A program made the position numbers and the translations under genes. A stretch of 64,000 nucleotides of DNA, from positions 1,169,234-1,233,233 of the forward strand of contig ML992503.1 in assembly GCA_010093995.1 (NCBI GenBank), given 5' to 3'. Below the pieces are notes generated by a model. That model worked only from the letters and a program-made list of their open reading frames with translations. It ran no database searches and had not been told where the DNA came from. Below, piece by piece: positions 31,488 through 60,475 of the stretch. This DNA comes from Elsinoe ampelina. Taxonomy: Eukaryota. Position 1 is the first letter of the stretch. Each line of letters begins with the position of its first letter.

Positions 31488-33263
31488 TCACTTCCCCCCA
31501 AGAACCTTCACAACATCCCTCACAGCCTCCCCAACCTTCCCTTCCCCCTTGACACCCCCCACCACATCCTTCGCCCCCATCACCTCCACAACCTCACTTA
31601 CCTCCCCGCCCACCTCAGCGAAATACACCAGATACCCCACCGCCAACACAGCCTGATGCGTCCCCTCCTTGGCCCCCACTCCCTCCTCCCCCAACATCTC
31701 CAACAGCGCAGCCACCAGCTCCGTCTGGCTCTCCTGCGGCAACGCCTCGCGATTCTCCTCCCTTCTGATGCGGTAATTGCTCGCTGCAAGATTAAACGCC
31801 AGACTCGCGGCGGCAGAGCGAAGAGCAGGTCTGTCTGGCTCAGCGAGGAGGGAGGAAGCCGCCAGGGAGGCGAAGATGCTGCTTAGAGGGGTGGTGTAGA
31901 TGGTGGTGAGAGCGACGGGAGATGTGAAGAGGGTGCATGCTAGTTGGAGAGTGACGAGGCGGAGATTGTAAGGGCAGGAACCTTGGTTGGTGAGAGAGGT
32001 GATGTGGTTGAGGAGGGTGAGAAGGGTGGTGGGTGAGGAAGGACCGGATTCAGTGGCGTAATGCGAGGAGACTCGTGGGTCGAGAAGGATGCAGCGGAAG
32101 AGATCGACAGCTGCGAAGAGAGCGTCTGGGGCGAGAGTGGTCGGGGCTGAGCGGAGAAAGGGAGTCCACACTTCAAAGGATGTGGATGGCATGGAGTGCG
32201 TACTGGAGGTGGCGGAGCGGGCCTGAATGAAGTCCTTGATGGATGCGACAGCTGGAGAAGAGGATACGCTGCCCATTTTAGCGATCACTTTGTCGAGAGG
32301 AGGGATCTTGGTGAACGAGACTGGTCGCAGGCTACCTGACTGCAATGCTGGGACTGAGATGGTGGAGTGAGGATGTCCAGGGAAGGCGAGATTTGAGAGC
32401 ATCTCTACGGCACTTCGGAGACGACCAGGGTCTGCGCCAGACCATTCTTCTTGCTTCTTTCCGTTCAAGAATGTCATAAAGGTAGGTGTCGCTCGGATCT
32501 GATATCGTGCTCCAATCGCATCCGCTTCGTTGATGTCCACTTTGATGAGGACAGATTTGGGATGCTCGCCCGCCAGAGAGTCATATGGCCCATAGCATAT
32601 CCTACAAGGCCCACATGTTGACGACGTGAAGAAGATGGTGGCACATCCGGACTTTGCCTCTTCCAGCAGCTTGTCTAGTTCTGGCAGCTGGGTGACGTTG
32701 TAGACCTGCCGGTGCTCCTTTGCACCTGATTTTGAAGGAGCCTTGATGCTATGGCCATTTGTTGATGGTGCCATGTGATTGCTACTGGGAGGCAGACTTG
32801 ATGATGCCACCGGTGCTTGCGTCACAGACCTCATCGATGCGTCCAGCTGAGGCCTCAACATCTGTCCGAACGGTGTATTTAGTACCGTCTCTGGTAGCGA
32901 TGTGATGTGGCTCGGAATGCCTTTTCCCACCAGGAACTGGGCAAAGTCATTTGAGAAGTTGTTGCAGTTGTTCTGGAAAAGATCATATGCTTCCGCGGTA
33001 TAGACTGACTTCATCGACTCGAGGTACTCCAGTATCACTTCAGCGGGCAGCTGTGTTTGGCCCATTTCTACAACTTCCATTGGTCTGCCATGATGGGTGG
33101 CACCGGGTCGTGATTGTTGTATTCCTTGCCCGAAAAAATATTCCACCCCGTTGACAACTATCGAGGTGTGATAGATTGCGTCTATTTGTGTTCCCAAGAA
33201 CTGCCGTGACATGTTTCTGGCCATACCCTGCGAAAGGTCGTATACATATAGTTGGACATCCAT
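31488..33263 (-). CDS. PPPDE (DeSI-like) peptidase - thioredoxin - PUL domain protein, 591 aa
   Basis: VQLYVYDLSQG, IYHTSIV and NNCNNFS (His/Cys dyad), thioredoxin TCGPC...IRATPTF, and a helical PUL-like C-terminus. Confidence 0.92.
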   Translation of the reverse strand: MDVQLYVYDLSQGMARNMSRQFLGTQIDAIYHTSIVVNGVEYFFGQGIQQSRPGATHHGRPMEVVEMGQTQLPAEVILEYLESMKSVYTAEAYDLFQNNCNNFSNDFAQFLVGKGIPSHITSLPETVLNTPFGQMLRPQLDASMRSVTQAPVASSSLPPSSNHMAPSTNGHSIKAPSKSGAKEHRQVYNVTQLPELDKLLEEAKSGCATIFFTSSTCGPCRICYGPYDSLAGEHPKSVLIKVDINEADAIGARYQIRATPTFMTFLNGKKQEEWSGADPGRLRSAVEMLSNLAFPGHPHSTISVPALQSGSLRPVSFTKIPPLDKVIAKMGSVSSSPAVASIKDFIQARSATSSTHSMPSTSFEVWTPFLRSAPTTLAPDALFAAVDLFRCILLDPRVSSHYATESGPSSPTTLLTLLNHITSLTNQGSCPYNLRLVTLQLACTLFTSPVALTTIYTTPLSSIFASLAASSLLAEPDRPALRSAAASLAFNLAASNYRIRREENREALPQESQTELVAALLEMLGEEGVGAKEGTHQAVLAVGYLVYFAEVGGEVSEVVEVMGAKDVVGGVKGEGKVGEAVRDVVKVLGGK

Positions 33264-33726
33264 GATCTAATCAGATCACGTAGTGATTCAGTGAGAGAGT
33301 GACAAGTTTCTGAAAGGTGTCTTTGAACCTGCTTGGAAGTTTTGTGATGATGTTGATGTGAGGTGTGGTCGTCAGCCTGGATGCCTGTCAACGTCGCCAC
33401 CCATCCGCTTCCACACCCTTCCACCACACGTATCACGGCCGCAATTTGACAACAACGAGACAACAGACCTTCTTCAAGAGCAGTAAGTAATTCGCTGTCC
33501 GCTTCACAGCTTTTGAGCCATCCCGGACAAGATGAAGACAGTGAAAGAATCACGAAGACGGATAAGTTTATTGTCCAATCGTATTAGATACATGGTACAG
33601 CTCAGGGCCAGAACGAAGCTTTGTAGTATGCCCACTACCTCTTTGATGAATCCATATGCCCTTCAGATATGCTCATACACTTATACGCCTGCTAATGCTA
33701 TCTGGAACGTGACCTATCGTGCTTGC

Positions 33727-35511
33727 TTACTGAATCTGAGAGATCTTGCACTTCCATCCTGACTCCTGACTGAGGAGTGGCAGACTGCGAAATCGTCAGC
33801 GTGCTTCGAAGTACGAATGTGAAATTGCTTACCTTGCTCCGAGACACCATCCCAATTCATTACCCTTGATCTTCTTCGCGATTCTGACCTCCCTATCAAT
33901 GGGCATTTCGTAGCCAGTGTGCAAAAGTGCCAACATGAAGTTGAGATCCAGACAGCTCTCTGGTCTTCCATTCAGCTCTTCCATAGCGCCCTCAACGCCC
34001 TGAAACACCTCCCAGCTACCGGCCTTGCCACCCTGGCACACTCTGTGAGTGAGCTCCTTCAACTCACTCAAGTGGAAGCTGTCGGGCATGCCGAGCGGCT
34101 TAGTTCGGTCGTAGAAGTAGCTGAACAAGAAGACTTCCTCCCTGCTGAAAGTCTTGCTGAGGCTGGGCTGATGCACACCGTCAAATGCACATGGTGCAAG
34201 CTTGCATTCCTTCTCTTTCCTGAGTGTCTTCTCCGCAAGCGATCTGCACTGAGTGCCGCTGCCACTTGCAGGTCCGGTCATGTTGAGCTTCACGCTGTCG
34301 CCCAGAGGGTGATCCTTGCCGAGAGGTACTTCCACGCTTGTGCTCATACCAGGTACGATACACGGGTTCAAAACAGGCTTCTCGGTCCAGGCAGTGTCCT
34401 CTCCGTGCTTCTCGTGCATGGTATCCACGACCACTCGGTGAAGGTTCTCGCGGGCAGCCATGAGACCGTAGCCAAGGTAAGAGTGCTGATAGAGTGTAAA
34501 ATCTCTCCCGCCAAATGAGAGCTTGTACTTATGGTCTCCTTCTGAAAGTTGCTCTGGCATGCCACCCGCTTTGGCATCTGGGAAGGTCGGCTCAAAAACG
34601 ATCTGTGTCGAGCCTCCACCAAGGTCAAAGACTGCAGCGGTAGGAGTCTTGTCCGGGCCTCCAATCTTGCCGAGTAGGTAGTTCGTCGTAATCCAGGCGT
34701 AAACACCCTCATCCTTGCCGTCCATGACCTCAACACCACCCTTGCTCGCCTCGAGCACCGGGAAAGGATATGCTGTCTCCAATCTTGTCCTCACAGCCTT
34801 CAGTATAGCATCGCTCTTCTCAGGTCCCAGTTTTCGCAGACCCGCAGTCGCCTTGACGGCAATGGGTGTGCAGCCTTGAATGGCCTTCGGTACGTTCTTG
34901 ACTGCAACGTCCAGCAGGATATCCAAGCTCTTTGCAGCTGCCTCTGGGTCGTCGGGATACGAAGACAGCCCGGAACCTCCCTTCTTCGGCGCCGTCATCT
35001 CAAACCACTCTTTCTCGAGCTCAGGCGTGGCACCGCAATTGTTGAAGCGATAGACGTGGATTCTCGAGCCAGTGCTGCCAGCGTCCACCATCAGCGCATA
35101 TTGCACCAATGGCTTCGAAGGCGTGTGTGGCTTTGTGCATTTCTCCGTCGTCACTGAGGAATCCGAGGGTATCGAGCTTCCTCCGGCTGAGAAGTCTCCT
35201 ACCGCAGAGCCATAATGTGATGGTGCGAGGTAGAAGAGAACCAGGATTATGAAGGCGATGATGCCACCAGTTTTGAGGAATCTAGAGGGGACACCCATGA
35301 AGCCGGTTCTGTGATCTGACATGGAAGACGCTTTCGCGTTGAGATTTGTTGAGCGAGGGACGGGATTGTGTCGATCTAGTTTCTCGTGAGGGTCGAGCGA
35401 CCTGCGCGTCTTGGGTAGTGAGACGCTTGTCCTGCGGCGTGTAGATGTGAGATCGAGATATGACCAGAGACTGGATTTGGTTCCGTTACTGTCGTTGATG
35501 CCGCTTGACAT
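33727..35511 (-). CDS. GDA1: Golgi guanosine diphosphatase (GDA1/CD39 family), 578 aa; intron 33785-33832
   Basis: Apyrase conserved regions DAGSTGSRIHVY, KATAGLR, DEGVYAWITTNY, DLGGGSTQI and ELGWCLGA|SL, with an N-terminal TM anchor. Confidence 0.96.
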
Positions 35512-36020
35512 GCGGACTCGTGATTAGGAGGTAAGGAGTGAAAGTCCGGTCATCGATCGATGCAAGGGAAATTTTGGCCGGAGACAGCTCCCAGGAGGAA
35601 AGATTCAGGTACTATAGGATCGTGGAAAGCCCTGAATGCGCCCTCGAAAAGTCCAGAGATGGAAGAAGAGGAATTGAGAACCGCTCAGGTGTAAGTTACG
35701 TGAAATTGGAACAAATTGACGGCAAGTTGGATGCATCCTTCAAGCAATTCGCGTGAAGCCCCTGGGTGCCGATCATTGGCGGGACCCTGATTTTTGCAGG
35801 CCACATCCCCTTTGGGAACAGCACGCCGCCATTGGATTCGGACTTGTCAGTTACACTTCGTGACTTTCACGTGACGATGGTGCAAATGTTCGATATGCAA
35901 GAGAAGAGTCATACGTGCAACCAATCTACGTAAAGGACGCCATGACAACGCCATGCAGGACAAAGACCACCGCCCGTGCTATGCATCACAATTGCCACCA
36001 TATCCATCCACCTGGTTTCG

Positions 36021-37514
36021 TTACAACTCGATGGCAAAGCGCTCCCTGATTCTCTGGCCAAACACGTAGAAGAGGATTGGCGCCGGCGCTATGACTACCG
36101 AGAGAAACCCAAAGACCGAAATACCCCAACCAACGCCAATGGCCTCGATGAGTCTCGGTGTGAAAAGAGGCACGACACCGCCCACAAGACTCCTAAAAAC
36201 CGCGCCGGCAGCAATGGCTGATGCTGCAAACTTTTCGAAACTGTCGATGTAGTAATTCTGAACTGTATTTAGAATCATGACCTGTCCAAGACCATAGAAG
36301 AAAGTTGCGATAATGGAGACGCTCCAATGAAGGTGAAGCTCGACAGCCCATGCGAACCAGAACAGACTGATGGGGATCAAGACAGATCCAATGTTGGCAA
36401 GTGGTAGGCGATACTCCGGCTTTGATTTGCCTCCGTTCTTGGAAGTCAAGTTCTGATACACCGTGTCTATTCGAGGTACAAGGAACCACACTGCAGTGAG
36501 AAATCCGATGCCGGGTCCGAGATAGAGAAGACCGACCTGTTCAGTATTGAAGCCATAACGATCCTGGTAGATGGATTGAAAGTTTGTGTAGATGCTGTAG
36601 GTCGTTCCGAAGACGAGAGCCTGGTAGACAGACATGGTAACAACTATCGGTTGAATGAAGATGCGAAGCGGGCGGGACAGTGCTCTCAGTATCTTGGAGC
36701 CAAGTGGTGTCTCGTCGTACCCATCCACCCTATACCTGCCCGAGACACCTTCTTCCTTCTCGAGCTCGACCTTTTTCTTGGAGAGAACGATTGGCGCATA
36801 GCTCTCTCGCAGAAAAAAGTAGCCAGCAAGTGTGTTGATGCCGCAGACGATAGTGAGGAGGAAGAAGATCCAGCGCCAGTTCAGTCGCTGAACTACCACG
36901 CCTCCGAAAACAGGTCCAATGGTGGGTCCGAGAAGGGGTCCTAGCAAGTACCATCCATAGATGCTGGCTCGCTCATTCGGCGTAAACATGTCGCTGATTG
37001 TGCCTCCGCCGTTGGCGATGCCTACACTGCCATAGAAGCCAGCAATCGTCCTCATAGCGATCAGGGTCTGAATGTTTGGCGCCAAAGCAGTCGGTATCTG
37101 CAACAGCGAGAAGACACCAAAGCAGATCAGATATAGATTGCGTCGACCATACGTCTCGGACAGTGGTGCGAGGAACAGAGGACCGATACCCAGACAGACC
37201 ACGAACCCTGTAGTCGTCCCAATGACTGTGTTCTTGTCTGTTCCAAGGTCGTCTGCGATCTGCTGTAGACCAGGAGTAAATGCAGAGCTTGCTAGAGGTG
37301 ATAAGATAGACATCATGGCAATCACGAAGACGTTGACCATCTTCCGCCTCCTCGGCCAGTTGCGTGGATTCGTCTCATCGCCGTCCTCGAATTTGAGTAG
37401 CTTTCTCGTATCTTCGTCGACGGCATCACGACCAGAGAGATTCTCATCGAGCAAGGGCGTCTCCTCGTTTGTATCGTGACGCGATGGCCGGTTCTCCTCG
37501 ACGTGTGGCGGCAT
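36021..37514 (-). CDS. MFS transporter, DHA1 (drug:H+ antiporter) family, 497 aa
   Basis: NPRNW, APLSETYGRR, GPLLGPTIGPVFGG, WRWIF and PEYRL motifs; about 12 TM segments. Confidence 0.95.
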   Translation of the reverse strand: MPPHVEENRPSRHDTNEETPLLDENLSGRDAVDEDTRKLLKFEDGDETNPRNWPRRRKMVNVFVIAMMSILSPLASSAFTPGLQQIADDLGTDKNTVIGTTTGFVVCLGIGPLFLAPLSETYGRRNLYLICFGVFSLLQIPTALAPNIQTLIAMRTIAGFYGSVGIANGGGTISDMFTPNERASIYGWYLLGPLLGPTIGPVFGGVVVQRLNWRWIFFLLTIVCGINTLAGYFFLRESYAPIVLSKKKVELEKEEGVSGRYRVDGYDETPLGSKILRALSRPLRIFIQPIVVTMSVYQALVFGTTYSIYTNFQSIYQDRYGFNTEQVGLLYLGPGIGFLTAVWFLVPRIDTVYQNLTSKNGGKSKPEYRLPLANIGSVLIPISLFWFAWAVELHLHWSVSIIATFFYGLGQVMILNTVQNYYIDSFEKFAASAIAAGAVFRSLVGGVVPLFTPRLIEAIGVGWGISVFGFLSVVIAPAPILFYVFGQRIRERFAIEL

Positions 37515-37993
37515 GGCTAAAGTTATATGTAGCTCACGTGGCTCGACGGTCGATCTGCGATGACTCTGCGCTGCTTGTGCTTAACCGGGTAACTCTAGAG
37601 CTGGCGTCTCGAGTATTGCTGTTCGACAGCCACCAAGAACAAGATACCTCAAAGGTGCTGAAGAGATTTTGGACGTCGAGAGGAGAAAAGCACGCGCGCA
37701 CCTACCTCTTTTCATGGTCAGACCTCGAAGGGACCTGGAGTGGAGGTGAGAGCCTAACAATGACGTTTGGGCAAATTAGCGGGCGCTTCACAGATCACAG
37801 ATCCTGGATCTGCTTCAAATCTGAAGAGCCGCAAAAGAGGACCCTGCGGGCTTTTCTCCTGCAGCCAGACAATCCTCCTTCCGATCTCCCCCTTCTCCGA
37901 TTGGACGACCTGCTGCGAACTCAAGCTACACAAGCAATACCCATCACCTTAGCCGATTGGAACGCACCATCATGCGAGTAGACGCTTCGTGTA

Positions 37994-39016
37994 ATGACGA
38001 GCCCGTTTCCAACAGCGACCTCTACGCCAGGTCAAGGGACGATTGATCTCATTCAGGTGCCACCTCTGGCATCAGCACTTCGTCAATTCTCATATCAATA
38101 TCCTTTGAAATTGGTGGCTCCGGCCCCGCTCACCTCGGACGATGAAATTTCCATCCAGACGGTGTACCTGCTAAGTTATGGCGGTGGTCTCGTCGGAGGT
38201 GACAGCATTGATTTAAATGTGTCGTTAGATCATGGCGTCCGGCTCATACTCTTGACGCAAGGCAGCACCAAGATCTTCAAATCTCCCTCTCCAGCCGTTC
38301 TCACCAGCCAGTTGACTACAGTGCGAGTGCTATCTGGAGCTGGCTTGTGCTATCTCCCAGATCCTGTGCAGCCGTTCGAGAAAAGCTGTTTCGAGCAAAA
38401 GCAGACGTATCACATCAAAGCGTCTATCGAGTCTGGAACGTCCAGCACAGGTTCGATGTGTGTGCTGGACTGGGTTTCGCAGGGCAGAACCGCGCGCGGG
38501 GAGAATTGGAACATGTGGAGATATGTCTCTCGCAATGACGTCTGGCTTCATTCAGGCGAGGATGAGCATGCGAAGAGGCGACTACTCCTTCGCGACAAAG
38601 TCATCTTGGATCCAAACCCAGGGGGTGATGGTTCCAGCACTTCACCGAGCTATGCAGAACGAATGCATAGACAGGGTGTGTTCGGCACCCTCATCCTGTT
38701 CGGGCCTTTGACGACATCACTGGCGGACTTCTTCCACGATGAATTCAAGCTTGTCCCACGTATCGGTGGGAGGAAATGGGACGGATCAGACGATGGCAAG
38801 GAGCCCACAGAAGTTGAAGTACGAAGGGAACTTCGACAACGACAAGAAGCATCTGATGGCTTGTTGTGGTCAGTTGCTACTCTCCGAGGCTGCACAGTGG
38901 TCAAGTTTGGGGCACGAGAAGTAGAGGGGGCCAAGCGTTGGCTGAAGACCATGCTCGAAACCGAGGGAAGTGTTATCAGACACTACGGCGAGCGCGCTAT
39001 GCTATGCTTGAGGTGA
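37994..39016 (+). CDS. ureD: Urease accessory protein UreD, 340 aa
   Basis: YQYPLKL, LSYGGGLVGGD, LTQGSTKIFK, LPDPVQPF, LDWVSQGRTARGENW. Confidence 0.94.
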   Translation: MTSPFPTATSTPGQGTIDLIQVPPLASALRQFSYQYPLKLVAPAPLTSDDEISIQTVYLLSYGGGLVGGDSIDLNVSLDHGVRLILLTQGSTKIFKSPSPAVLTSQLTTVRVLSGAGLCYLPDPVQPFEKSCFEQKQTYHIKASIESGTSSTGSMCVLDWVSQGRTARGENWNMWRYVSRNDVWLHSGEDEHAKRRLLLRDKVILDPNPGGDGSSTSPSYAERMHRQGVFGTLILFGPLTTSLADFFHDEFKLVPRIGGRKWDGSDDGKEPTEVEVRRELRQRQEASDGLLWSVATLRGCTVVKFGAREVEGAKRWLKTMLETEGSVIRHYGERAMLCLR

Positions 39017-39943: not shown

Positions 39944-40086
39944 TACCTCCTCGGACGCTTCGAAGCATGTATTATTATTATATTCCTACCACATCCTCGC
40001 CTTCTCAGCCAGAGTGCATGTAGCACCAGCCATACTTCAACAATGAACAACCCCCTTCCTTCCTTCCTCCAGCATCATCTGACCAG

Positions 40087-41547
40087 CTAAAACCTAGCAT
40101 TATGCCTCCCCCTCTCCCCCGGCCCCGGCTTCACCACCCTCAATGCCTCCACGTTATGCTTCTTCGGCGGCACGGGGCAAAACTGCGCCTCCGCCGGCTG
40201 TCCCCCCGCTATCCCCACCCCACTCACACTCATGGTGATATAATCCGCAAACTGCGCCGCATACAGAATATTCTGCTGATTGCTCGTATCCACAATATCA
40301 CTGACCGTGAGCTGGCGTCCCTTGTTATCCGGGCCCGTCCCGACCACGCCGTCCGGGATCTGGATGTGCAGACGCAGACCCTGGTGTTTGGCGATGTCGC
40401 CGCGTTGCCAGGTGTAGGTGCCGTCGGGGACGGGGACGAGGTTGGAGCCCGTGCCTTGGATGTCGAGTTGGAGGTTGGAGAAGTTGGTGGTGTTGATGTA
40501 GATTGCGACGGGGTTGGCGATGGAGACGGAGACGCCGGAGCGGGCGAGTTTGTTGATGCCGTCGCCGATCTGGGAGGGGGTTAGGGATGTGGTGGAGGGA
40601 GGAGAGGGAGGGGGTCAAGGGGGAAAGGGGCTTACGGCTGGGTCGGAGTTGCGGCTGGGGTCGCCGTATTTGGAGCAGTTGATCAGTTTGGTCCTGTCGG
40701 TGACGATGTTGCCGTTTGGGTCTTTGCGGATGACGGTGCCTTGGGCGGCGATGTCGACTTCGGCGCTGAGAGAGTTGTTGGGTTGCACGAGGTGCATGAT
40801 GGTGCCGGTGGTGGTGGAGTTGTTCCACTTGTTGGTCGGATTGTAGGTGCCGTCTGGGTTCACCAGATCGGATAGCTGGATCTGGTTGGAAAATGCTGGG
40901 TTGCAAGCCTTGTACAGGCCCAGGACTTTGTTCATGTCAAGGGAGCCAAGGAACTGCCAGTACTAGTAGATGTAAGCTGACGGTGACGCAGTAGTCACTC
41001 CAGGTCACCCACCTCTGGGCCTTCACAGGTAAAGGTCACACTGTCAATGGTGTTTCCGGTCCTTTGGACAGTCCACTCGAGGTACTCGTCTTGGTTGTCA
41101 CGAGTCTTGTCTGCCTCAATCCAGCGTTCTGGTTCGTTTGGGTACCTGACTTGCATCTGAAAAAATTGTCAGCTACAGCTCCAACCCATACGTCGCAGCG
41201 AGACATGCATTCCTCGGAAATCCGATCCAGGTGATGACCACGGGTGTCTGATCAACGTCATAGGCCGTGACAGTGCCATTGAAAAACTGTGGCAATGGAG
41301 TGCGTACGACATTGTCGCCACCGAGCAGTGGGGAACCATCATCGTTCTTCGCAGTGATCTCGGTGTTCATCCAATCAGCGATGTAGTCGGTGGACCAAGT
41401 AGCTCGCTGATCTGCGGTGAGGCCGTCGTCGACACTTGGATACCCAGGGGGGTCGAACTCGGCAAGCGTCTCGACCCTTACAAGAGGCTGTTTGTCGGCA
41501 GCGACCTTGATGCTGTCGGAGCGGACGGTGTCGATGATATCGGCCAT
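40087..41547 (-). CDS. Conserved-looking protein of unknown function (QDEYLEW/FTCEGPEYW motifs), 430 aa; introns 41157-41208 (GC-AG), 40963-41012, 40570-40635
   Basis: Three introns with branch points join four ORF fragments into one 431-codon frame: WIGFPRN|MQ...QDEYLEW...VTFTCEGPE|YWQFL...YNPTNKWN...HLVQPNNSLSAEVDIAA...YGDPSRNSDPA|IGDGIN. Confidence 0.85.
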
Positions 41548-42838
41548 TGTCTATGCGGGAAGGAGAAGAACTGCAAGAAGTTATGAGGAAGTAGGAGATG
41601 TGGTTGAGTTGACCTCGATACTTGTGGGACGGCCACCTCTATAAACCTATGGCGGGTGCAGGCCAGGAACAACATTTCCCAATGCAGCCAGTCAACAGTA
41701 TATACGGCGTTGGCATGTCGTTCAAGCAATTCGAGTCCGTTCGCATCGATACTTGAGCATCAGGCTGGCTGAGGGTAGATCCCCGTTGGCAGCAGGTCTC
41801 CCTATTCAGCTCAAGATGGCGCGTTTACAGCGACTTCAATCAAGCAACAAATCAATAGCTCGATGATCTTCACCACACAAGGACGCGTAACGTAACGCAC
41901 CTTCATACCGAGACGACTTCAGGGTTCAAACGACGAGGGCACATGTTGTCGAGAAAAACGCTGTGTCTCTCTGATGTCGATCTCCACCTGACAACCGTTG
42001 GGGAATCTTGGTGTCCCTCGGCCCGCTCCTCTGCGCTCTTTTTTCGTCCACCTGCTGTTCCACTGTGATGTCGTTGCAATATCACGTACACGTATCGCTG
42101 CATACTTTGATCCAATCATCCAAGATGGATCCTGAGTCTCTTGTTGCCGCTGTCGTGACCAGATGACCATTCGGAACCAGCATTGCGCCCTTTGAGACGT
42201 TGAACGCAGGGTACAGGGTCTTGAGTCGCTTCTACTGACTGTTGCAAGTCCCATCTCGCATGCAGCTCCATTTTGGATGTCTCAAGATGCAGGGTCGCGA
42301 CCGTTATGCTGCAGCTGATGGGAACAGCAACATTACGCCGAACTATGCAACGGGTCTATCTGCTTAGCTGCAAGCTCATGACACTTGTGGAGTATCCAGT
42401 GCCTGGAATGGTTCACTCCATCCATCAGCCCTCGGCGAATGCGACCTCATCGTTGAGCTAGAGATGAGCCCACAGCGGTCAGACACGCTATCCTGCAGGT
42501 GTTCTACAGCTCGCAGCCAATCACGGCCGTGCCGTATATCCCTCAAATCGATATATTGAGTACAGCACTTCATACAGACGCTTCATCCATCTCCTCATGC
42601 AGAGACGTTCGAAATCAGTACACCAACTTGCGATGATCTTGCTCTACATTGGGGGAGCTAAGCGACCTGTCTTCATGGGCGGAGCGATCGCCTGTTTGCT
42701 GAGAGACATGGTTGCCACAAGGATTCGTATTGGCCACTCACTTGGGTAGCCAGACTGAAAGCCATAAATTTGGTGCCATGATCCGTCATTGATCGTCTAC
42801 CACTTTTACGTGATTCTACAATTTCTTTTCGCTTCATC

Positions 42839-45800
42839 ATGACACAAAACCTTTATTGGGCTGACTTCCTGCGAACGCAGCTCAACGGGAGGAAAGATAC
42901 GCTCGCAGATCAAGCTTTTCTTAACTTGAACTTCACCGACTTCTTCGGGCAATGGCTTCGTACAGATCAGAACTCCTCTGTTGAGTCTTTCGATGGCCTA
43001 CTGCAGATCTTCTGGGGTGAGTCATCTTCAGATTGAGGTGCCGAATGCGCTAAAGCGATTGTAGGCGGCTCGCAGGCCAATCCTCCGCTCTATCAAGTCA
43101 ACACTTTCGTTATCGCTGATGCCGGTTTCCTCAACAAGAAGACAATCCCAAATGCGGACTGGTTCAGCCCACATATACGTCTTGTATCCATCGTCACTTT
43201 GGCTGGGAAGACGCCATTCACCACCAACCCAGCAGAGTGGACGCTTTGTATCGTTGGGAGCGCCGACTTGACACAGACAAGCAGGGACTCATCATTCCTG
43301 CAAGTTGCCTCATGGGACAGCAAGCTTCTTAGGTTCTATCAGGTGAGCACACACAGGGTGACTGCGACGAATTCATTCTGACGGTGCTACAGAACGACTT
43401 CATCAATGGTCCTGATGGACAACCGACCACTGTCCAAGCGTGGAACTACTTTGGAAACTCCATGGATGCCTTCGGACCCAGCTCATACCTCGGCCCGTTC
43501 AATGGCCACGTGAACGGTGCGGTCATAATGAAGGAACTGCACGCGTGAGTACTACATAGCTCGAGAAATGCTTCGACCTGATTGTTTTCAGCCCGTGGAT
43601 TCACTGGTATGGCAGCAGCGCTGGTGGTAGTCTGCCAGGATTCGACAGCGATTTTACAGCTTGTTTCTCTCAAAAGAACCGAGACGACTTCAAGAAGGCA
43701 CCGTATATTACTCAAGTAGGGCAAGCGATGCTTTCGGCCGTTGACCAGAACCCAAATGATCTGGAGGGCTTCATCAAAACCGGTGTATTGAATTGGTTTA
43801 CTAATCGTCAAACTTGGGACTTCTTCGACAGTCAGCGGAACAACCTACAAGAACATCCCAAGAATGTGGACAGATGGACAGCTCATCTTTTCTTGACCAC
43901 GACGATCAATATTGCCACAGCGTCGCAAAACAGTGAGGGCACAGCATGGATTGTGCCCAACGACCATTTTTACGATCAGGAACTGCTCTCACAATCATTC
44001 ATAAGTGCGTTGCTAGTAAGTTGACGATATCGTGCATCTCAGGATGACTTCTGACATTCTGAAGCCGGGAGAACTTCTTACCATCACTTTCACGCCGGAC
44101 CAGTATAAGTCAGCCCTCGACACCGTCGGTCTCTCCATGCTTCAGGAGGATTTCAGCGACCCGGGGCACCCGTGGCCTGCCGACTACATCCAGCGATCGT
44201 GGCGTTCTTTCTCTGGAGGTACAGGACCAAACGTCGGGTTCAGGAAAGTGTTGGAGAACAACGAGGGACAAGCGGCATTCAACATTCTTCAAGCATCCAT
44301 GGAAGACGCTCAAGGTGTTAGTAAGATGCAAATGCTCAAGAAGGTCAATGGTTCCTGGATGGGTCTATTCTCTACCAAGGTCCTCTACGCCATCATCATG
44401 CTTGATTTTTGGAACCCGATCTACTCCTGGCGCCGCGGAAAGCTCATGGAGTACGTACCGCCGACCACTACTTTGGTTGACGGAAAGACATATGACCTCG
44501 AAGCGAACTTTATAACAAACGTGAAGAACTCAACATACTGCACGCAGGAACAGCAGGACAGTCCAGAATATCAATTCATCCAGCTACTGGACGTTGCTAT
44601 TCAGACACACCAGTCGAACATATCGAAGTACTACGCTGCAATCCGGGGACGTTTTGCAACTGATCCGGTCGCTGCACTGATAGAGAATCTGACCCTTGCG
44701 GAGTCCCGACGTCGTATCTACAGACCACTCCCTCTGGACGAGTTCGGATACACCATGCCATATGCCCTGGGCATTCCAGAAGACGCTCCTCTTGTGGAGA
44801 TGACGGCTGCTGGTACGACAACACAGATACCGGAGCGAGGCATCCGCTTCTTCACCGAGTGGACAGACTCTCTTGCTAATGCGAATCCTCACGTCATCCC
44901 GGATCCGACGAATGGGGCGACTCCAGGGCTGATGAACGCCAAATCACTCCCACGAGCAGCAGGTCTTGCATTACGCTGCCAAGCACCTACTTCAGCTACA
45001 CCGGCACCTCGCATGGCATTCGCTCAGTCGTGCCCCTTTCTCGCTAGCCGGAGAGCTGATGAGGCCGATCGACTTGATTCGGTAGTGGAAACGACACCTG
45101 TTCCGACATGGACTGACGATATCCTCCCAATGATACAGTCTCCGTACTGGCTACCTGCCGCGTCTCGGGCTAGCACAGGAGCTGGATGGATCGGGGCCAT
45201 GAAATATTGGAGCGGACTCCAACTCGATAACTACGAGAACGTCAAGGACAAGTGCGTCACTATATATGAGCACTTGCGGTCGAGGACGATGCCGGTCACT
45301 GACAATCCAGATGAGTACTGGCCAGAGGAGGCTCTTGAGACGTTGCGTTCCTGGGCGAATGGAGGGTTTCCACAGGTTAAGACAGACGCACCTACTCCTC
45401 AGACTGTGATCCCTACCCCGGTCCAGCCGATCCCAGCATATAGGGTCAGAAGAGACATCATGAGTCTATCGGCAGACGAGCTTGCTGTCTATCAGTCAAA
45501 GCTGGATGCTGCACTGGACCCTGGTCAACTTGGTACCAAGTGGCAGGAGCTCGGACTATTACGTACGTGGATTTTGAGGTTGGCTGGCATCATGCTGACA
45601 TGTCGTAGATACCGAGTGGTGTTTGCACTATCAGGAAGCGACGTTCTTGTGGCACCGCGCATACCTCAGGCAGGTCGAGGAGCTCATCGACTACCCGATC
45701 CCGTACTGGAATGGCTATGCCAAAGATTCGAGTGATCCAGACTCTCCATACGCAGGGATACCTGCCGTCTTCTTCGAAGATACCTACAAGCATCCTGATG

Positions 45801-46976
45801 GCAGCATTCGGCCTAATCCGCTGAAGTACGCTCTTGCATTGGACGGCAAGTCTAAACAGCCACCCAACCAGTACGTCACTCGTGATCCTATCTTGGTCAA
45901 CGGTAAGAACGACCCTGGCTGGAATGCGAAGATATCTCTCTTCACTCTGTACCACCAGCAGATCACTCAATCATTGAGCCAGGCTACTTTCACCTCGTCG
46001 AACACTGCGGAAGGCTTTGGTATGCCTTGGGCGAACATACCGACATTCTCGGACAATCAGCCGGATTCTCTGTATCCGTACCGCTTCGACTTTGATGGTT
46101 TGTTTGAGCAAGTCCACGACAATTTCCATGGTTGGGTTGGTCCAGACATGGTAAGTCGTCACACCCAGTCGCGCATTCTATCAAGCATACTGACTCGCCC
46201 AGGCGGACAACACCTACACAGCCTTCGACCCGATCTTCCTCTCGTATCACTGCAACATGGATCGCCTGGCAGCAAAGTTCATCGAGTCCCACCCCGAAGG
46301 CCGATTCACATCCGGCTTCCCTCTCCAGCCCTTCCAGGACAACGGCAAGACAGTAGCCTACGACGATCCCCGGAAGTGGTCCTACACCACCATCGGCGAC
46401 ATGGCCAAAGACACGCGCGCACTCGGCTACTTGTTCGCACTGCCAGCCAACCCAGATGTGTACTCGCCTCCAACGGCGATAGAGAGGAAGATGTATCGCG
46501 CACCTGCAAACGGAGGGAAAGCAGTGACGCTCCTCGCCGCAAGCAACGGATCAAAGGACACCAACGCCACCAATTGCACAACCACGCAGTGCAAAACGCC
46601 ATATATCATCTTCTCCAACGTAGGCTGCACCTCCACCAGCTATCGAATCGACGTCTTCACTCGTCCCGCTGCATCCCTCGACCCCAACCCCGTGACCAAC
46701 CCGGACTTTATTGGACAGATCACCCGCATCGGCATGGGACCCGGGCGAGGCGATGGAGGTCTGCGCAATGCCACGAGGTGTCGCAAGCCGGAGGCCACGC
46801 GGGTGCTCAAGGCCGATGGGGTGAGGGAGAGGTTGGAGAAGGGCGGGAAGGCGGAGGAGGTGTTGCAGCTTGTGGTTACGGATCTGGAAAAGGGGGAGGT
46901 GGTGGGGGAGGAGGTATATGGGAAGTTGGGGGGGTTTGAGGCGAGGGTGATCTGGTTGGATACGACGCAGGAGTAG
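42839..46976 (+). CDS. Tyrosinase (type-3 copper) fusion protein with a large uncharacterised N-terminal region, 1281 aa; introns 43017-43064, 43343-43392, 43545-43591, 44016-44064, 45563-45608, 46151-46202
   Basis: Six GT-AG introns (46-52 nt) give one 1282-codon frame. CuA site H-TEWCL-H-YQEATFLW-H-RAY, PYWN, CuB site EQV-H-DNF-H-GWVG...AFDPIFLSY-H-CNMDR, preceded by YRVRRDI. No signal peptide. Confidence 0.9.
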
Positions 46977-48577
46977 GCATGCTGGTGATGGACATTATTT
47001 GCCGCGGTTGCTCTCTTGACTGCTCGAACGCGATCGTTGCACATGTCTCGAAGCGCGTGTACCTTGCCGGGGTGTTTACTGACCTGCGCAATGCATGGCT
47101 CCACCCCGGAATCAAGCCTATTGTGACATGGCTGGCTGCGTGGAGCCACCAGCTTGCGCGTCTCTGTTAAGCCGCTCCGTCGTCTTGGAACGGCCCCTCC
47201 GTCCCCCCAGAACAGTCGGCATCCATCATCACATTTTCCATCCATCCAGGAAGTTTCAGGCAACAAGATCAGAAAGACGCACTCCGACACCAGGGACGAC
47301 GAAGATGCAGACGCGGCAAAAATGACCGTTGCTGACACAGGAGACAAGGCTACGGAAAGGAAGCGGGGGAGACGGATCTAAAAGTACGAGATCCACCTCG
47401 ACGCGCAACGCTGCCGCATGAGCCGTGAGGTAAACGCGCAGTCGCAAGCATGTTGTTTCATCTTGTCATCTCCGAAGACGAAAAGTCTCGCAAATATACA
47501 GTATGCAGTGCCCCTAGGTCAGCATGAACCTCGAGAGGGTTTATCAGCGATAATGGTAAAGCCAAAAGGTTGGTGGCAGTCATGCGTCAAAGCCATGTGC
47601 TCGGCCTGGTCTCAGCGAGAGTAGCCAATCAGAACCAAGTATCGACGCCTCTCGTGTCTATTGTTGGGACGAGTCATGTCCCCAATTTGTCCCAGTCGAT
47701 CCCAATGCGCAATACGTGCTCGATTGGGAAATTGTCGAATCTCGAGCAATATCGAGCTGTACTGTACTGTAGCCCGCTGTGCGACTGATGGTAAGTTAAG
47801 CAATTCGATGATGCAGAGATACTGACACCTGCCTCGAGGAGAAGGAGAGATGTTTGCTGTCGGAGCGAAAGAGGCTTGTCCGGCGATCGCTGCAGAATGT
47901 GTTTTGTTCATCAGAGCGGGCACGAAATTTCTGATCGAGGCTGCTTTTTTTGCTCCGGGCTGCGGCGATGAATGATGGGGCAGCACTTTGTACCTGCATG
48001 TACCTGCATCGGCATCGTCATTCTTTCCATTCAGCGAACAGCGAGGTTGCAGCCTTTGCAAAGCCTTGATCAATTCACCGACAACCCTTATCGTACCCCA
48101 CAGATACAGCACACTCTGGTGTCGGCTTGACTCTGGCGCGCCATGTCTCGTGGTTTCATTGCGAGGTCTCTGCTCAGGTTGAGTCCTCTAGCATACCAAG
48201 CCAGTGCGCAGCTGTCCGGCGAGTCGAGCGAGACTTGTCTACGGAGCAGAGACCACGACCCGACTCGCTATCCGGTAGTGCTGTGCGCCTGGTCGGGAAG
48301 ACCTAGGTAGGGTTGCCCTATCGCCATTCGGACGCGCATCCGTCACAACCGTGAAGTCGTCAGACGCAGCTGTGGATCTCACAAGCAAGATCAGGTACAG
48401 TATGTCCGACTGTTGTCTCCACGTCTACCACGCTATACCCATCTTTATCCACTCGCAAACGCTGGTTGATCGAGCAGAGATGCTTTTTGGGATGCTTTTG
48501 TTCCTGATTCGCCTGGTTCCCCTAGTGCTGATCGTCAGGAACGGCCGCACGGCAGGCTTGACTCTGGACGAGCAAAG

Positions 48578-51398: not shown

Positions 51399-54300
51399 TC
51401 ATGAGGCTGCATCGTACCGGAAGGATCCTACGCCAAAGTTGACGGCCACACGCACATCATTGTCGCCTATACCTATCACAGCATAGAGGCGACCGGACGG
51501 AGCCTTCGCGGCGCGGCCTATGAAGAATGTCAGTCCTTCTGCAGAACATTGTGAAGGGCGGGTATCTGCCGCGACGCACCCAGGTGTTTTCCATTGTGTG
51601 TGAAGAACAATTCATCCCTCTGATAGTCTACACCACAGCCGATTATGTCCCCGGTATGGTATGTTGTGCCCTCTGAGTAGGCTTGCCCCTTTCCGGATCC
51701 CAGAAATAGCTTCCCGTCGTCCATGTGGAGTGCCCAGGACCCAGCCTCCCAGCCTGGCATGCCGACTGTTGCTGCCATGTCACGGCATAGTCCGATACCA
51801 ATGAGACTGTCGATGTCAGTACCCTGCTTGTCCTTCTAAGCTTCAACACTTTAGTCTTGCTTGGATTGATACCTTCTGCGACCAACGTTCTCGATCTCAA
51901 CCTCAAAGTACGGACGCTGCTCGCTGAATGCAAAAGGGTGATCTGCTCTGATCTGCGAGCGTTTGGCGAGTTCCTCGGAAGAAGCTTTGTCTGGAGGAGC
52001 ATCAGCAGGCAATCGCGAGTGTCTGCAGAACTTCATACCTGCTGTGACAAACAAACTGCCAGGAACGACACCAAGAGAGCTGGCGGGCGTGGCTTTGACA
52101 ACGGATGTAGGCGAAGCCATCGGAACATGGGACTTGTTGCAAATTGCCTTCATTGGTGGGCTAAGGTATGGCAGGAACTCGTGCTCGCCACACCTTTCAG
52201 CCACTTGCCAGGGGAGCCATCCGTGCTGATCGGGAAGTGCTAGATCAGCCTTAGCTTGACTCAGGGCTTTGACCACGGTGGAGTGCGATGTAAGAACCGC
52301 GACATGTAGGGCCGTGCCGAAGTTGCTCCCAGCCAAAATGTCAGCACCCCTCGCAAGGAGCAATTCCACAATATCTTCGTTGCCACCTTTTGCAGCGGCA
52401 TGCAACGCGGTACCGTAGTCCCCACCTTTGGCGTGGATGTCGACGCCATGCTGGAGGAGAAGCTCAACTACAGCTGTGTTTCCTGCTAAAGCAGCAGCCT
52501 GGAGAGCACTACCGTGCTTGCCGACTTGAGCATGTACATCGGCACCCTTGTCAAGTAACATCTTCACTACCACTTCATGGCCGTGGACTGCGGCAGCTTG
52601 AAGTGCAGTGCCGTCTTCGCCACCCTGAGCATTCACGTAAGCACCTCTATCGAGTAGAAGGCGCACTATTGCTTCATGCCCATTCAGTGCAGCAGCTTGG
52701 AGAGCGCTACCGTGCTGTCCACCTTGGGCATTAATGTTGGCTTTCGCATCTAAGACCAGCCGGACTATAGTCTCGGAACCGCTGCATGAGGCTGCTTGAA
52801 GGACGTAGCCATGATCTCCTCCTTCGATGTTGACATCAGCACCATGTTCGAGCAGTAGTTGAATGGCTTTCAGCTGTTCCTCAAACACAGCAACACCTAA
52901 TGGACTACCATGGTCGCCCGCTTGAGCATTGACATCGGCACCGTGATCGAGGAGTAGCTGAATTACTCCTTGGTGCCCCTCAGAGGTAGCAGCACCTAGA
53001 GGGCTACCATACTCACCACCTTGAGCGTTAACATCGGCACCATGATCAATGAGCAATTGTACTACTCCTTGATGGCTATTATGGGCAGCAGCGCCTAGAG
53101 GGCTTCCGTAACCACTGCTTCGAGCGTTGATATCGGCACCGCCATCGAGTAGAAATTGTACCACCTTCTCGTGCCCTGCTAGAGCTGCTGCCGCCAGAGG
53201 GCTCCCAATCCGTCCAGAGATTGTGTTGATATCGGCTCCTCTGTCAATGAGTAGCTGGACTAATTCAACACTGCCACCAGCAGCGGCGGCATTGAGTGGA
53301 GCGCCGTATGATCCTTCTCCGAAACGCCCAACATCAGCACCTTTCTCAAGAAGTAGCAGCATCATCTCTCTGGACCGTCCGTTGGCAGCAGCACCTAGCG
53401 CACTACCGAAGGAGCTATTCAGAGCTTCAAAGTCTGCACCATGGTCGAGTAGTAGCTGTACAATGTCTCGATGACCCCCATAGGCGGCGGCGCCAAATGG
53501 ACAACCCCAGTTACTGCACCGAGCATTGACGTCAGCGCCTTTGTCAAGAAGTAGCTCTACCACGTCCTGGTGGCCAGCCGCCGCTGCTGCACTCAGCGGC
53601 ACACCATAGCCACCACCTTGTGCATCGACATCTGCACCGTTATCGAGCAGTAACTGAACCACTTCACGACGTCCAGCGAATGCAGCAGCACTCAGCGACG
53701 TGCTAGGCCCCCGTCCTTGTTCGACAGCATTGGCGCCCTCATTGAGGAGGAGCTGCACCATTTCCGTACCTGCGCCAAATGCAGCAGCAGCGAGAGGACT
53801 GAAGTCATTGTCGTGACGGTCGTTGATTCTAGCGCCTCTGGCGAGAAGTAGTTTTACCACGTCTTTGTGTCCCCGACCTGCCGCAGCTTGGAGCACACCT
53901 CCGAATGGCCCGCCCGGTGCGTTGACGTCGACACCATGATCCAGAAGCATTTCCACCCCCCAATACAATCCAGTTTGAGCGGCGTAGTACAGTGGGCTTG
54001 GTAAATCTTGCTCGTCAATGTCCTCATCCATGACATCTTTCCACGGCTTGTCGGGATTATACAGCCGTGCGCATCTTTGTTCGAACTCATCAGATCTTAG
54101 CAGTGACTCCGCCATGCGCTGTGACTCTTCGTCATCACGCAGGACACGTCTGGCATATCCGGGCCACTCGTTCGCACAGAATTGAGCGAGAGGATAGTCC
54201 TTGCTCGTCGTGAATGTGTCGTGTGCCAAGTCAAGTCGTAGGAGATACGTGAGGGAGACTCTCGTCAAGGCTCTACAAGATTCAGCTTCTTCAAAATAAT

Positions 54301-57029: not shown

Positions 57030-57560
57030 GATGGGTAAGGTGCCAGCTCTATCAACCTCTGACCTCCACTGCAAAGTGCGCCAGGTGCGCAGGTCGAGAT
57101 ACTTGAAGGCATAATCAGGCTGGTCATCAGGAGCCGATTGGAGCTTTTAGAATATACGCAAGCCCCAGCTGCGACAATCGATTGACAAAGCTGATGCAGT
57201 GCTGGCCAGTTGAATTGGCCGCCAATGAAAGCCGAGCCAGTCGCGCAAACCATTGACCACATTTGACTAGCTTTTGGCTAAGGTCGAGCCCCGCCGGCTC
57301 CTTGATCATTAGATGGCTACCCGGTGTGGCCGCCAATCTCAGACGCTCAATGCGCGCTGAGCCGAGCTCCAACAGATCTCAATCAGACTGCCGAGTAGCC
57401 TGACCTCTGTAGCTGAAATGTATACATGCTAAACATGTTCTTTTTAGCTCGTAGGGACTTCTTACTACTATACCATCTAGTAGCTTATTGACTTGTAGAA
57501 TTCTTGATTATGTCTTGACGTTCAATAGATGGTCTAAAACTGCTGTGACCAAGCCTCGTT

Positions 57561-59741: not shown

Positions 59742-60475
59742 CAGTCGCAGTGAAGGCCAACACGCCCCTGCTTCGCAAAAGTCCAGTAAATCGACCACAT
59801 CGACCAGCGGAGCAATGCATGGGAGAGCCCGGCTTCAAATATGCAGAAAGACCAGGGTGCTCGCTCCTGAGGTTCATTTTGCCCAAGCGCCCAACTACGC
59901 CGCATTGCTGCAGCTGAAAATTTAGAGCGTGCACCAACCGTGGGTTTGAAACGCAAAGCGCTCAGCTGTGCGGCACAGTCGATGATCCTAGGATGTAATA
60001 CTTACCAAGCTAGCCTGCATTTCGATACGAGACCTTGGGAATGACCACGACGAGGTCTTGGACATGGCTTTGAAGATGCCTCTTGATGAACCTGGACTCA
60101 TTGATGTTCTGCATGAGGGCAAGAGACAAAGTAGAGAGAGATTGAGCGGCGTGGTAAGGATCATCAAAGATAGGGTTTCACAAGCCTGATAGATTGGACT
60201 TGGCACTTTCACAGTGGAACCTGTCCAATGCTGCTGAAATGTGGTCCGGTGTTTGATTGGTGGACTGCTGCTATTCACAACAGTCGCCATCTGCTGCAGC
60301 CGCCGATCTGATGCTTCATCACGTGTCGGAGAGGAAAGAAGGTCGCTCGGCCGAAGCCGGAGACGATTTGAGCCGCAATCAATTCACCGCCACGCCGCCT
60401 CGTCCGCAAGCAGTCTTTGATCAAGACCTCACGGAATGCTGACCAAGTCAATGCTGATAATCTCCAAACCACCGG

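Follow-up and report, generated by a model that had tools for sequence, protein, structure and literature searches.

We describe a pair of divergently transcribed genes of the fungus Elsinoe ampelina within a window of 64,000 nucleotides (nt), the whole stretch of DNA analyzed (NCBI GenBank assembly GCA_010093995.1, contig ML992503.1, positions 1,169,234 to 1,233,233 of the forward strand; coordinates below count from the first letter of the window). Gene A, on the minus strand at 41547..40087, encodes a protein of 430 amino acids (aa) of the PF26676 family, and gene B, head to head with it on the plus strand at 42839..46976, encodes a protein of 1281 aa in which a tyrosinase follows a large module of a family without a Pfam model, here called the N-module. 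In every genome context that was read, a PF26676 gene adjoins, or is fused with, one of three partners: the N-module, which is the commonest, a tyrosinase, or a DyP-type heme peroxidase. The explanation that we favor, to which we would give a probability of roughly 45%, is that gene A and gene B encode the two components of a conserved oxidative enzyme system in the cytosol, with gene A as the constant one.

Gene models and the tyrosinase fusion

Gene A, rebuilt from the raw sequence, consists of four exons on the minus strand (41547-41209, 41156-41013, 40962-40636 and 40569-40087), runs from a start ATG at 41547-41545 to a stop codon at 40089-40087 and has introns of 52 (GC-AG), 50 and 66 nt. 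Gene B consists of seven exons on the plus strand (42839-43016, 43065-43342, 43393-43544, 43592-44015, 44065-45562, 45609-46150 and 46203-46976) and six GT-AG introns of 46-52 nt. The spliced translations are identical to the deposited proteins P0001 (430 aa) and P0186 (1281 aa), and the coordinates, lengths and head-to-head layout given by an earlier, sequence-only reading of this DNA were thus right. As a transcript check, contigs from the public runs X1, X2, X3 and X6 (three studies, two coded organisms) were placed on 40000-47100. These runs are only guessed to be RNA, none being recorded as such; despite this, the lack of introns in the contigs points to an origin from spliced transcripts. 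All nine coding introns are skipped at their predicted borders, each in two to four of the four runs; the contigs skip all six introns of gene B, and those from X2, X3 and X6 skip all three of gene A. The GC-AG intron 1 of gene A (41157-41208) is seen in contigs from three of the four runs and in the deposited protein, which together rule out an alternative with a GT donor at 41191 and an acceptor before 41145. A single contig, from X1 only, joins 41570 to 41622 and so skips a further 51 nt (41571..41621, minus strand, GT..AG) in the 5' untranslated region of gene A.

The two start codons are separated by a shared spacer of 1291 bp (41548..42838), and homologous spacers at metagenome loci measure ~0.7-1.45 kb. 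No shared promoter motif was found: across seven divergent spacers no k-mer exceeded the shuffled controls, and CAGCCAGCC was present in four of the seven, against a shuffle maximum of three. The co-expression raised by the sequence-only reading is borne out insofar as spliced contigs of both genes occur in the same three runs (X2, X3 and X6); expression levels are beyond what contigs can measure. Contigs from these three runs also differ from the window at 63 listed or counted positions of gene B, between 44504 and 46313, and carry a 21-nt in-frame insertion at 46533-46535, in the C-terminal domain, and X1 matches the window; this looks like variation between strains or sister species.

The gene B protein can be divided into five parts. 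The N-module (aa 1-620; 42839..44892) is followed by a linker (aa 621-689; 44893..45099) of low model confidence that is predicted to be disordered and holds a conserved Cys-Pro motif (C667-P668, at 45031-45036). A pre-tyrosinase extension (aa 690-803; 45100..45441), which has no Pfam match and aligns to the N-termini of tyrosinases of ~550-675 aa, leads into the type-3 copper catalytic domain (aa 804-1050; 45442..46280, spanning the introns at 45563-45608 and 46151-46202). The C-terminal domain of the tyrosinase unit (aa 1051-1281; 46281..46973) shares 32% identity over 168 aa with the C-terminal region of a Paracoccus tyrosinase and presumably serves as a lid on the active site, as in latent tyrosinases. 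PF00264 matches aa 836-1050 at 82.6 bits (cutoff, 22.6; E value, 6.6e-23), and the six-His site is intact, with H844, H850 and H859 as ligands of copper site A (CuA) and H1013, H1017 and H1040 as ligands of copper site B (CuB). These histidines lie in the motifs LLHTEWCLH..WHRAYL and HDNFH..SYHCNMDR and align with the CuA and CuB sites of hemocyanins, C848 lies in a C-x-H motif, and the codon of H844 is split across an intron (45562 plus 45609-45610). No Pfam match was obtained in the ~800 aa before the tyrosinase, and the sequence-only reading of a complete six-His center behind a long non-tyrosinase sequence is thereby confirmed.

The fusion in gene B is genuine. The 499 codons of exon 5 (44065-45562, aa 345-843) form one uninterrupted frame, which takes in the second half of the N-module, passes through the linker and the pre-tyrosinase stretch and ends early in the tyrosinase domain; spliced contigs span the introns on either side of it, and one contig of 3848 nt (record 7 of X2) covers exons 4-7. 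The N-terminal region and the tyrosinase thus share one reading frame, which speaks against the separate transcripts that the sequence-only reading named as a refutation. Moreover, gene B has 24 long homologues (891-1305 aa), of which 20 belong to named fungi. We weighed against this the reading that gene B is an annotation artifact joining two genes, or that genes A and B are unrelated neighbors. Split database models speak for it: a Chaetomium protein of 670 aa, the Trichophaea models KAF8544172/KAF8544173, and Arthrobotrys megalospora, in which N-module and tyrosinase are separate genes two locus tags apart. The artifact is already contradicted by the frame of exon 5, the bridged introns and the long homologues, and the conservation of the linkage from bacteria to fungi, described below, goes against a chance neighborhood; the probability that we would leave to this reading is close to nil.

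A phmmer search with exon 5 against 1.84 billion representative proteins (E value of <=1e-3) returned just 277 matches. These are of three kinds: some are fused and ~1250 aa long, others (~610-700 aa) consist of an N-module only, and the rest are tyrosinases of ~550-675 aa that start with the pre-domain. Twenty of these matches were looked up and 12 have names: nine are fungal, and the others are from the choanoflagellate Didymoeca, from a Thalassospira bacterium, and from an entry labeled only "tyrosinase." The tyrosinase core of gene B is 45% identical over 314 aa to a Paracoccus denitrificans tyrosinase of 562 aa (E value, 3e-87), and aa 729-799, the second half of the pre-domain, are 38% identical to the N-terminus of the Paracoccus tyrosinase that is linked to a PF26676 gene; the best solved tyrosinase chain (303 residues) reached an E value of only 1e-4. 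Because the core is this similar to a plasmid-borne, PF26676-linked tyrosinase, gene B is best described, on sequence comparison, as an N-module fused to a member of a PF26676-linked tyrosinase subfamily, that is, as two alternative partners of gene A in one chain.

Ordinary fungal latent tyrosinases have an N-terminal catalytic domain and a C-terminal lid. Gene B resembles them in its six-His dicopper site, its C-x-H motif and the C-terminal domain after the core, but differs in ~800 extra N-terminal residues made up of a separate conserved family, a linker and the pre-domain, and its tyrosinase is nearest by sequence to the bacterial PF26676-linked enzyme. In a crude hydropathy check, the N-termini of both proteins of the pair are polar rather than hydrophobic, and no membrane-like segment was found (no 19-residue window above 1.24 on the Kyte-Doolittle scale). 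The statement of the sequence-only reading that both lack a signal peptide agrees with these N-termini and rests only on this crude check, and a cytosolic location of both proteins is likely on the same grounds.

Partners of PF26676 in bacteria and fungi

PF26676.1 is the precomputed label of P0001 and of all 22 first homologues of gene A; a profile search yielded 273 relatives. Gene A is 37-38% identical over ~90% of its length to Rhizobium and Vitiosangium proteins and carries the motifs QDEYLEW and FTCEGPEYW. An alignment of 30 rows that covers fungi and all three bacterial partner classes has 24 invariant columns (W107, D136, E137, Y138, W141, E158, Y162, Y201, N205, N208, H218, L226, L254, G261, R265, S267, D268, P269, I271, G272, N276, P290, R326 and P342), which include the motifs DEYxEW, ExPxY, YxxxNxxN, H218 and RxSDPxIG. 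This pattern is typical of an active site, and gene A looks enzyme-like by this measure. The disordered C-terminal tail of the family has a conserved Cys, followed by 25-45 variable residues and an end of [ST]R plus 0-3 residues. Longer forms of 505-531 aa from Fusarium and Colletotrichum (P0262, P0266 and P0269) have an internal insertion and a proline-rich C-terminal extension that ends in ..GPPDYMGMPEP.PPNGP..SI.PK.IY, and they form a long-branched clade.

The N-module is homologous to bacterial proteins of ~490-555 aa that are encoded just upstream of PF26676 genes. Residues 137-578 of gene B match a Rhizobium protein of 537 aa (BLASTP E value, 1e-22), the alignment including GPFxxHVNG..MKEL..PWxHW, and the N-module matches a Bradyrhizobium protein with an E value of 6e-28. 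In the window the signature reads GHVNG..MKEL..PWIHW (aa 190-208; 43504..43607), is split by the intron at 43545-43591 and aligns in Rhizobium as well. The family signatures are HVNG..MKEL..PWxHW and DFxNPxxSxxR; in the filled rows of a 52-row alignment, H191 is conserved in 100%, K199, E200, W205 and W208 in at least 98% and H207 in 90%, and D425, D458, N461, S465, R468 and P476 are invariant in 46-52 rows. An ESRRR..R motif is also kept. A linker motif G-C-P-[FYVA] occurs in N-modules of the fungal type, whether or not they are fused, and the short bacterial ones lack it.

Both core families probably have a new fold, judged from predicted models. The AlphaFold model of gene A has a mean predicted local distance difference test score (pLDDT) of 75 and a predicted template modeling score (pTM) of 0.75. 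For the N-module, the model is that of a 48%-identical Chaetomium homologue (P0038) and not of the window's own protein; it has a pLDDT of 82 and a pTM of 0.85, is folded up to the equivalent of ~aa 615-625, and falls below a pLDDT of 50 in the stretch equivalent to the linker. Compared with PDB as whole models of more than 400 residues, they reached best Foldseek E values of 0.88 (gene A) and 0.80 (N-module), the best VIA-align Z scores of the gene A and N-module models were 3.1, 3.6 and 3.4, and sequence profiles of the two against PDB gave nothing below an E value of 0.1. An ESM Atlas search with gene A reached pectate-lyase and tail-spike clusters at chance level only (133-142 of 256 features shared), and one with a bacterial N-module returned nothing beyond its own unnamed clusters, which have no Pfam family in common. 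No Pfam match to a flavin-binding domain was found in PF26676, and NCBIfam and PADLOC contain no match for the N-module. A complex prediction for P0186 aa 1-618 with P0001 aa 28-408 scored 0.00 with alignments unused and the fold of the partner uncertain, and gives no evidence either way.

Several known identities were tried for these families and rejected. The N-module is not a diverged LodA (no LodA_N or LodA_C match; hhalign probability, <1%), nor is PF26676 a LodA relative (hhalign probability, <1%). It is not a DyP either, as it has no DyP_N or Dyp_perox_C match and hhalign against the PF26676-linked DyPs gave 0.1%. Finally, TIGR04492, the model of VioB/RebD-type iminophenyl-pyruvate dimer synthases, gives nothing for P0186, P0163 or P0038, and touches the ferritin-like domain of P0184 alone, at 12 bits against a cutoff of 1250.

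Among prokaryotic genomes, scanned at one per species, 299 stretches encode a PF26676 relative, and the best 80 of the 299, ranked by likeness to the Rhizobium query, were examined. In 79 of the 80, the next gene upstream encodes an N-module on the same strand; the 80 loci come from Streptomyces, Kitasatospora, Pseudonocardia, Bradyrhizobium, Sphingomonas, myxobacteria, Planctomycetota, Nitrospira, Kuenenia, Acidobacteriota and others. The exception is a Parachlamydiales contig that ends just after its PF26676 gene; hhalign ruled out the open reading frame upstream of that gene as an N-module. No tyrosinase lies within 8 kb of the pair at any of the 80 loci, a DyP occurs anywhere in the flank at three, and since no other neighbor family recurs at more than nine of them, the pair is a self-contained cassette in changing surroundings.

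Plasmids provided a less biased sample, with 38 records that match PF26676, or 30 once eight that contain just a 70-residue fragment are set aside. The N-module is directly upstream in 13 of the 30, which are all of the plasmid records that have an N-module. A long DyP-type heme peroxidase (510-555 aa; DyP_N, Dyp_perox_C) is directly downstream in 12, with adjacency read for 11 and unread for Bacillus cereus; the other carriers are Bacillus thuringiensis, Mycetohabitans (two records), Acaryochloris (two), Nostoc, Ralstonia (two), Sinorhizobium meliloti, Rhizobium sophoriradicis and Bradyrhizobium barranii. In the remaining five, a tyrosinase is directly upstream (Paracoccus denitrificans, four records, and Sinorhizobium sojae). 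In these records the three partner types are mutually exclusive. A plasmid of Rhizobium ruizarguesonis has the two genes overlapping, with the stop codon of the upstream gene for the 537-aa N-module lying within the PF26676 gene, and the two families are joined in one chain, N-module first, in P0160 (843 aa), in P0146 of the glomeromycete Funneliformis (1047 aa), and in P0179, P0182 and P0184 (1312 aa), the last with a ferritin-like PF12902 domain ahead of the N-module. The suggestion in the sequence-only reading that relatives of the two families occur as bacterial neighbors was thus well founded: it is matched by 79 of 80 genome loci, by 13 of 13 plasmid records with an N-module, by the Rhizobium overlap and by these fusions.

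Further genes accompany some of these pairs. The tyrosinase-PF26676 pair is followed by a gene for a 502-aa protein without a Pfam match in two records (L110, 6307-7815, and L112, 9624-10997); the P. denitrificans and S. sojae versions are 54% identical, and hhalign ruled out the Paracoccus one as an N-module. On the Nostoc plasmid (L111, 1-7738), an apparent operon encodes a ferritin-like protein, a radical S-adenosylmethionine (radical-SAM) protein, a second ferritin-like protein with a weak LodA_C match, a protein that binds flavin adenine dinucleotide, PF26676 and the DyP. In Bradyrhizobium and Mycetohabitans a conserved set of four genes lies just downstream of the pair (L005, 9240-14210; L003, 9948-14934; also L050, L053, L056 and L057) and encodes a protein of 386-413 aa with a metallopeptidase-like HELGH motif, a protein of 218-223 aa, a LodA/GoxA-family oxidase and a LodB-like flavoprotein. 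A serine protease gene follows PF26676 on the same strand within 19-153 bp at four loci (L073, 9179-11371; L008, 5135-7180; L009, 9105-11246; L007, 9058-11298), and these downstream proteases are either trypsin-like, of the same cluster as one that bears an EAD1 domain, or subtilases.

Linkage also extends through the fungi. Homologues of genes A and B have consecutive locus tags in seven other fungal species: Cylindrodendrum hubeiense (g12338/g12337), Neonectria ditissima (g8703/g8702), N. magnoliae (007464/007465), Colletotrichum karsti (01655/01654), Cephalotrichum gorgonifer (DNG_03136/03135), Fusarium piperis (005976/005975) and Dothideomycetes sp. NU459 (g7781/g7782). In seven more species both proteins are recorded on contigs of equal size, which is weaker evidence of linkage. 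A gene A relative is encoded at 24 metagenome loci; 12 of them are informative in having at least 1.5 kb of upstream DNA, and eight of these show an N-module on the opposite strand, head to head, followed by the pre-tyrosinase stretch and tyrosinase where the contig extends far enough; two pairs among the eight look like duplicates. With seven species and eight loci in agreement, the pair proposed by the sequence-only reading holds as a conserved module.

The possible horizontal origin that the same reading proposed is not shown. A quick, unrooted tree was built by maximum likelihood from 54 sequences of the PF26676 family. Its 27 Dikarya rows all lie together to one side of a single branch (98% support in the Shimodaira-Hasegawa-like approximate likelihood ratio test). 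The basidiomycetes are a clade next to Pezizomycotina, the proteins with a DyP partner are a clade as well (98%), and the Funneliformis fusion lies on the bacterial side. The Elsinoe gene is nested in no bacterial group, and an unrooted tree neither shows nor excludes an ancient transfer. Several relationships within Pezizomycotina conflict with the species tree, and this suggests paralogy or transfer among fungi.

A proposed oxidative system and its rivals

Three points underlie our reading as a two-subunit oxidative system: PF26676 always has a partner gene in the contexts read, this association goes back a long way and in some proteins is covalent, and, of the three partner types, two are enzymes that oxidize phenols by activating O2 or H2O2. 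In Elsinoe, the dicopper domain would use O2 to convert a phenolic substrate to an o-quinone; candidate substrates are free tyrosine, a tyrosine-derived metabolite or peptidyl tyrosine. A physical complex of N-module and PF26676 would bind the substrate or capture the reactive product and steer it to a defined product rather than to random melanin, presumably in the cytosol. In bacteria without the tyrosinase, the N-module or the DyP may supply the oxidizing step. The oxidative role suggested by the sequence-only reading is favored by this context, in which the alternative partners of gene A are a DyP heme peroxidase or a tyrosinase, and we count on the same side the ferritin-like links, that is, the PF12902 domain fused in P0184 and the ferritin-like genes of the Nostoc operon. 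The more specific roles that the same reading offered (pigment, quinone cross-linking or chemical defense) are guesses.

Several points weigh against this reading. No cofactor motif or known fold has been recognized in the N-module or PF26676; the contigs that show both genes spliced in the same runs cannot show co-regulation. Four of the 12 informative metagenome loci have no gene B upstream, one locus (L106) has a pre-domain tyrosinase downstream of gene A and no N-module, and in Orbilia blumenaviensis the related tyrosinase (003767) and the PF26676 gene (009187) have distant locus tags. The 80 bacterial loci, being those nearest to the Rhizobium query, favor the N-module type, and partners are unread for the PF26676 genes of Aspergillus and Penicillium and for the long-form ones of Fusarium and Colletotrichum. 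Moreover, if N-module and tyrosinase are interchangeable, a protein that has both is unexpected, and the N-module may do something else.

The main rival reverses the roles of the partners: PF26676 would be the client, and its neighbor would oxidize a Tyr, Trp or Cys of it to a protein-derived quinone or cross-link cofactor, the matured PF26676 being the working enzyme. This would account for the pairing of one protein with three chemically different oxidants, all able to oxidize aromatic side chains, and the invariant W107, Y138, W141, Y162 and Y201, together with the conserved Cys of the disordered tail, would offer residues to modify. Comparable relations exist between MauG and methylamine dehydrogenase, between LodB and LodA, and between QhpG/QhpD/QhpE and quinohemoprotein amine dehydrogenase. 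Some PF26676 loci have radical-SAM, flavoprotein-hydroxylase, subtilase and LodA/LodB genes, a gene set known from cofactor biogenesis, and a flavoprotein of this kind is described in PMC7876137. These extra genes, however, are present at few loci (LodA at 5 of 80; two subtilase clusters at 6 and 4 of 80), in Bradyrhizobium they form a separate LodA/LodB subcluster, maturation enzymes are not usually fused, or paired one to one, with a second large conserved domain, and no modified residue has been observed. We think this explanation unlikely, and still the most serious competitor. A bolder version, to which we would give somewhat less credence, makes PF26676 a new enzyme class whose quinone or cross-link cofactor would be formed from invariant Tyr and Trp and installed by the adjoining oxidant (tyrosinase, DyP, or the N-module as a new oxidase fold), with the Elsinoe fusion as a self-contained maturation machine tethered to a scaffold. 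If true, this would provide the first example of a tyrosinase that is dedicated to cofactor biogenesis.

The changing surroundings of the pair also raise the possibility, an improbable one in our judgment, that it is an effector in biological conflicts (defense, allorecognition or cell death) that would release toxic quinones or reactive oxygen species on a trigger, possibly after proteolytic removal of the PF26676 tail. Its distribution is patchy and often plasmid-borne, the conserved tail ends in the [ST]R motif noted above, and variable neighbors include EAD1-trypsin proteins (9 of 80 loci), the subtilases of the two clusters just mentioned and patatins (4 of 80). EAD1 is given as a mark of conflict-system effectors in passages of PMC7159879. 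In the window, two NLR-type genes lie 5-14 kb downstream of the pair: one on the minus strand (51854-57146), with PNP_UDP_1, NACHT/NPHP3_N and a long ankyrin array across three open reading frame pieces, and one on the plus strand (60461-63999), with PNP_UDP_1 and then TPR repeats. These genes, however, do not adjoin the pair, no neighbor is common to more than nine of the 80 loci, and PADLOC-DB 2.0 has no match for P0186, P0163, P0184, P0001 or P0288 and one chance-level match for P0160 (E value, 0.02); the same passages of PMC7159879 contain no tyrosinase, DyP, peroxidase or oxidase.

On the other side of the pair, the window has a block of genes at 24892-26016, 27257-29392, 31491-33266, 33832-35523 and 36024-37580, all on the minus strand, and at 37982-39013 on the plus strand. 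They encode an AA9 lytic polysaccharide monooxygenase, PalH/RIM21, a PPPDE-thioredoxin-PUL protein, a GDA1/CD39 nucleoside phosphatase, a major facilitator superfamily transporter and UreD; these are ordinary housekeeping genes, and the pair does lie at the edge of a housekeeping block.

Comparison with known systems and significance

Operons of the MelC1-MelC2 and GriE-GriF types in Streptomyces combine a tyrosinase or o-aminophenol oxidase with a helper, or "caddie," and a MelC1-type caddie has ~130-150 aa and an export signal and is encoded upstream of the tyrosinase. The Paracoccus and Sinorhizobium operons resemble these in placing a type-3 copper tyrosinase directly beside PF26676. PF26676 proteins, in contrast, have 370-580 aa, no export signal by the crude check and an enzyme-like conservation, and they also pair with DyP or the N-module where tyrosinase is absent; gene B matches the NCBIfam model of MelC2 weakly (26 bits; cutoff, 450), the comparison with this group being confined to the NCBIfam MelC2 and BagH models. 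Gene A itself was rejected as a MelC1-type caddie in view of its 430 aa, its polar N-terminus and its lack of a Pfam or NCBIfam caddie match. More broadly, PF26676, with or without the N-module, could be a metallochaperone that loads the metal cofactor of its neighbor, as its position beside metalloenzymes and the conserved Cys-Pro or Gly-Cys motifs in the flexible tails of both gene products would allow. This fits poorly because the metals of the partners differ (copper or heme) and because most bacterial pairs have no recognized metalloenzyme, with tyrosinase at 0 and a DyP in the flank at 3 of the 80 loci. With PF26676 in addition three times the size of MelC1-type caddies and without an evident export signal, we regard such a role as very improbable.

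The oxidative system that we favor has further partial parallels. Among oxidases paired with product-directing proteins are the plant laccases or peroxidases with dirigent proteins and tyrosinase with dopachrome tautomerase. The three partners of PF26676 suggest a similar logic, in which a constant non-redox protein would work with interchangeable generators of radicals or quinones; no relation in sequence or fold was found, and the likeness would be functional only. DyPs also occur in two-gene systems, as encapsulin cargo and in DtpA-GlxA maturation. Here, too, the DyP adjoins a specific partner gene, but this partner is PF26676 and not encapsulin or a copper radical oxidase, and the DyPs in question are long, with N-termini that lack an export signal by eye.

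The quinoprotein amino-acid oxidase operons LodA/LodB and GoxA/GoxB are described in PMC4417212 and PMC3948610. Like them, the pair is a cassette of a large and a smaller protein that is patchy in bacteria, is present in fungi and, as we infer, performs oxidative chemistry, and LodA/LodB clusters lie a few kilobases from it in Bradyrhizobium and Mycetohabitans. Unlike LodA, neither P0186 and P0001 nor the Rhizobium pair has a LodA_N or LodA_C match, whereas a true Bradyrhizobium LodA scores 200 and 96 bits.

We found no description of PF26676, of six of the locus tags or of a tyrosinase module of this kind in the literature, most subscription journals lying outside its coverage, and NCBIfam and PADLOC have no match for either core family. 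On present evidence, the module fits no described system and consists of a known enzyme, tyrosinase, and two uncharacterized core families. Three types of oxygen- or peroxide-activating metalloenzyme (tyrosinase, DyP and the ferritin-like domain) have been recruited by the pair, and this pattern of partners marks an undescribed oxidative biochemistry. It explains the odd architecture of the fungal tyrosinase as a fusion of two alternative partners of one core protein and defines a tyrosinase subfamily with a dedicated protein partner. Carriers of the module include tractable organisms, among them Paracoccus denitrificans PD1222, Streptomyces, Podospora and Trichoderma. Depending on the chemistry, the module may prove to hold a new protein-derived cofactor, a quinone-handling enzyme or an effector of microbial conflict.

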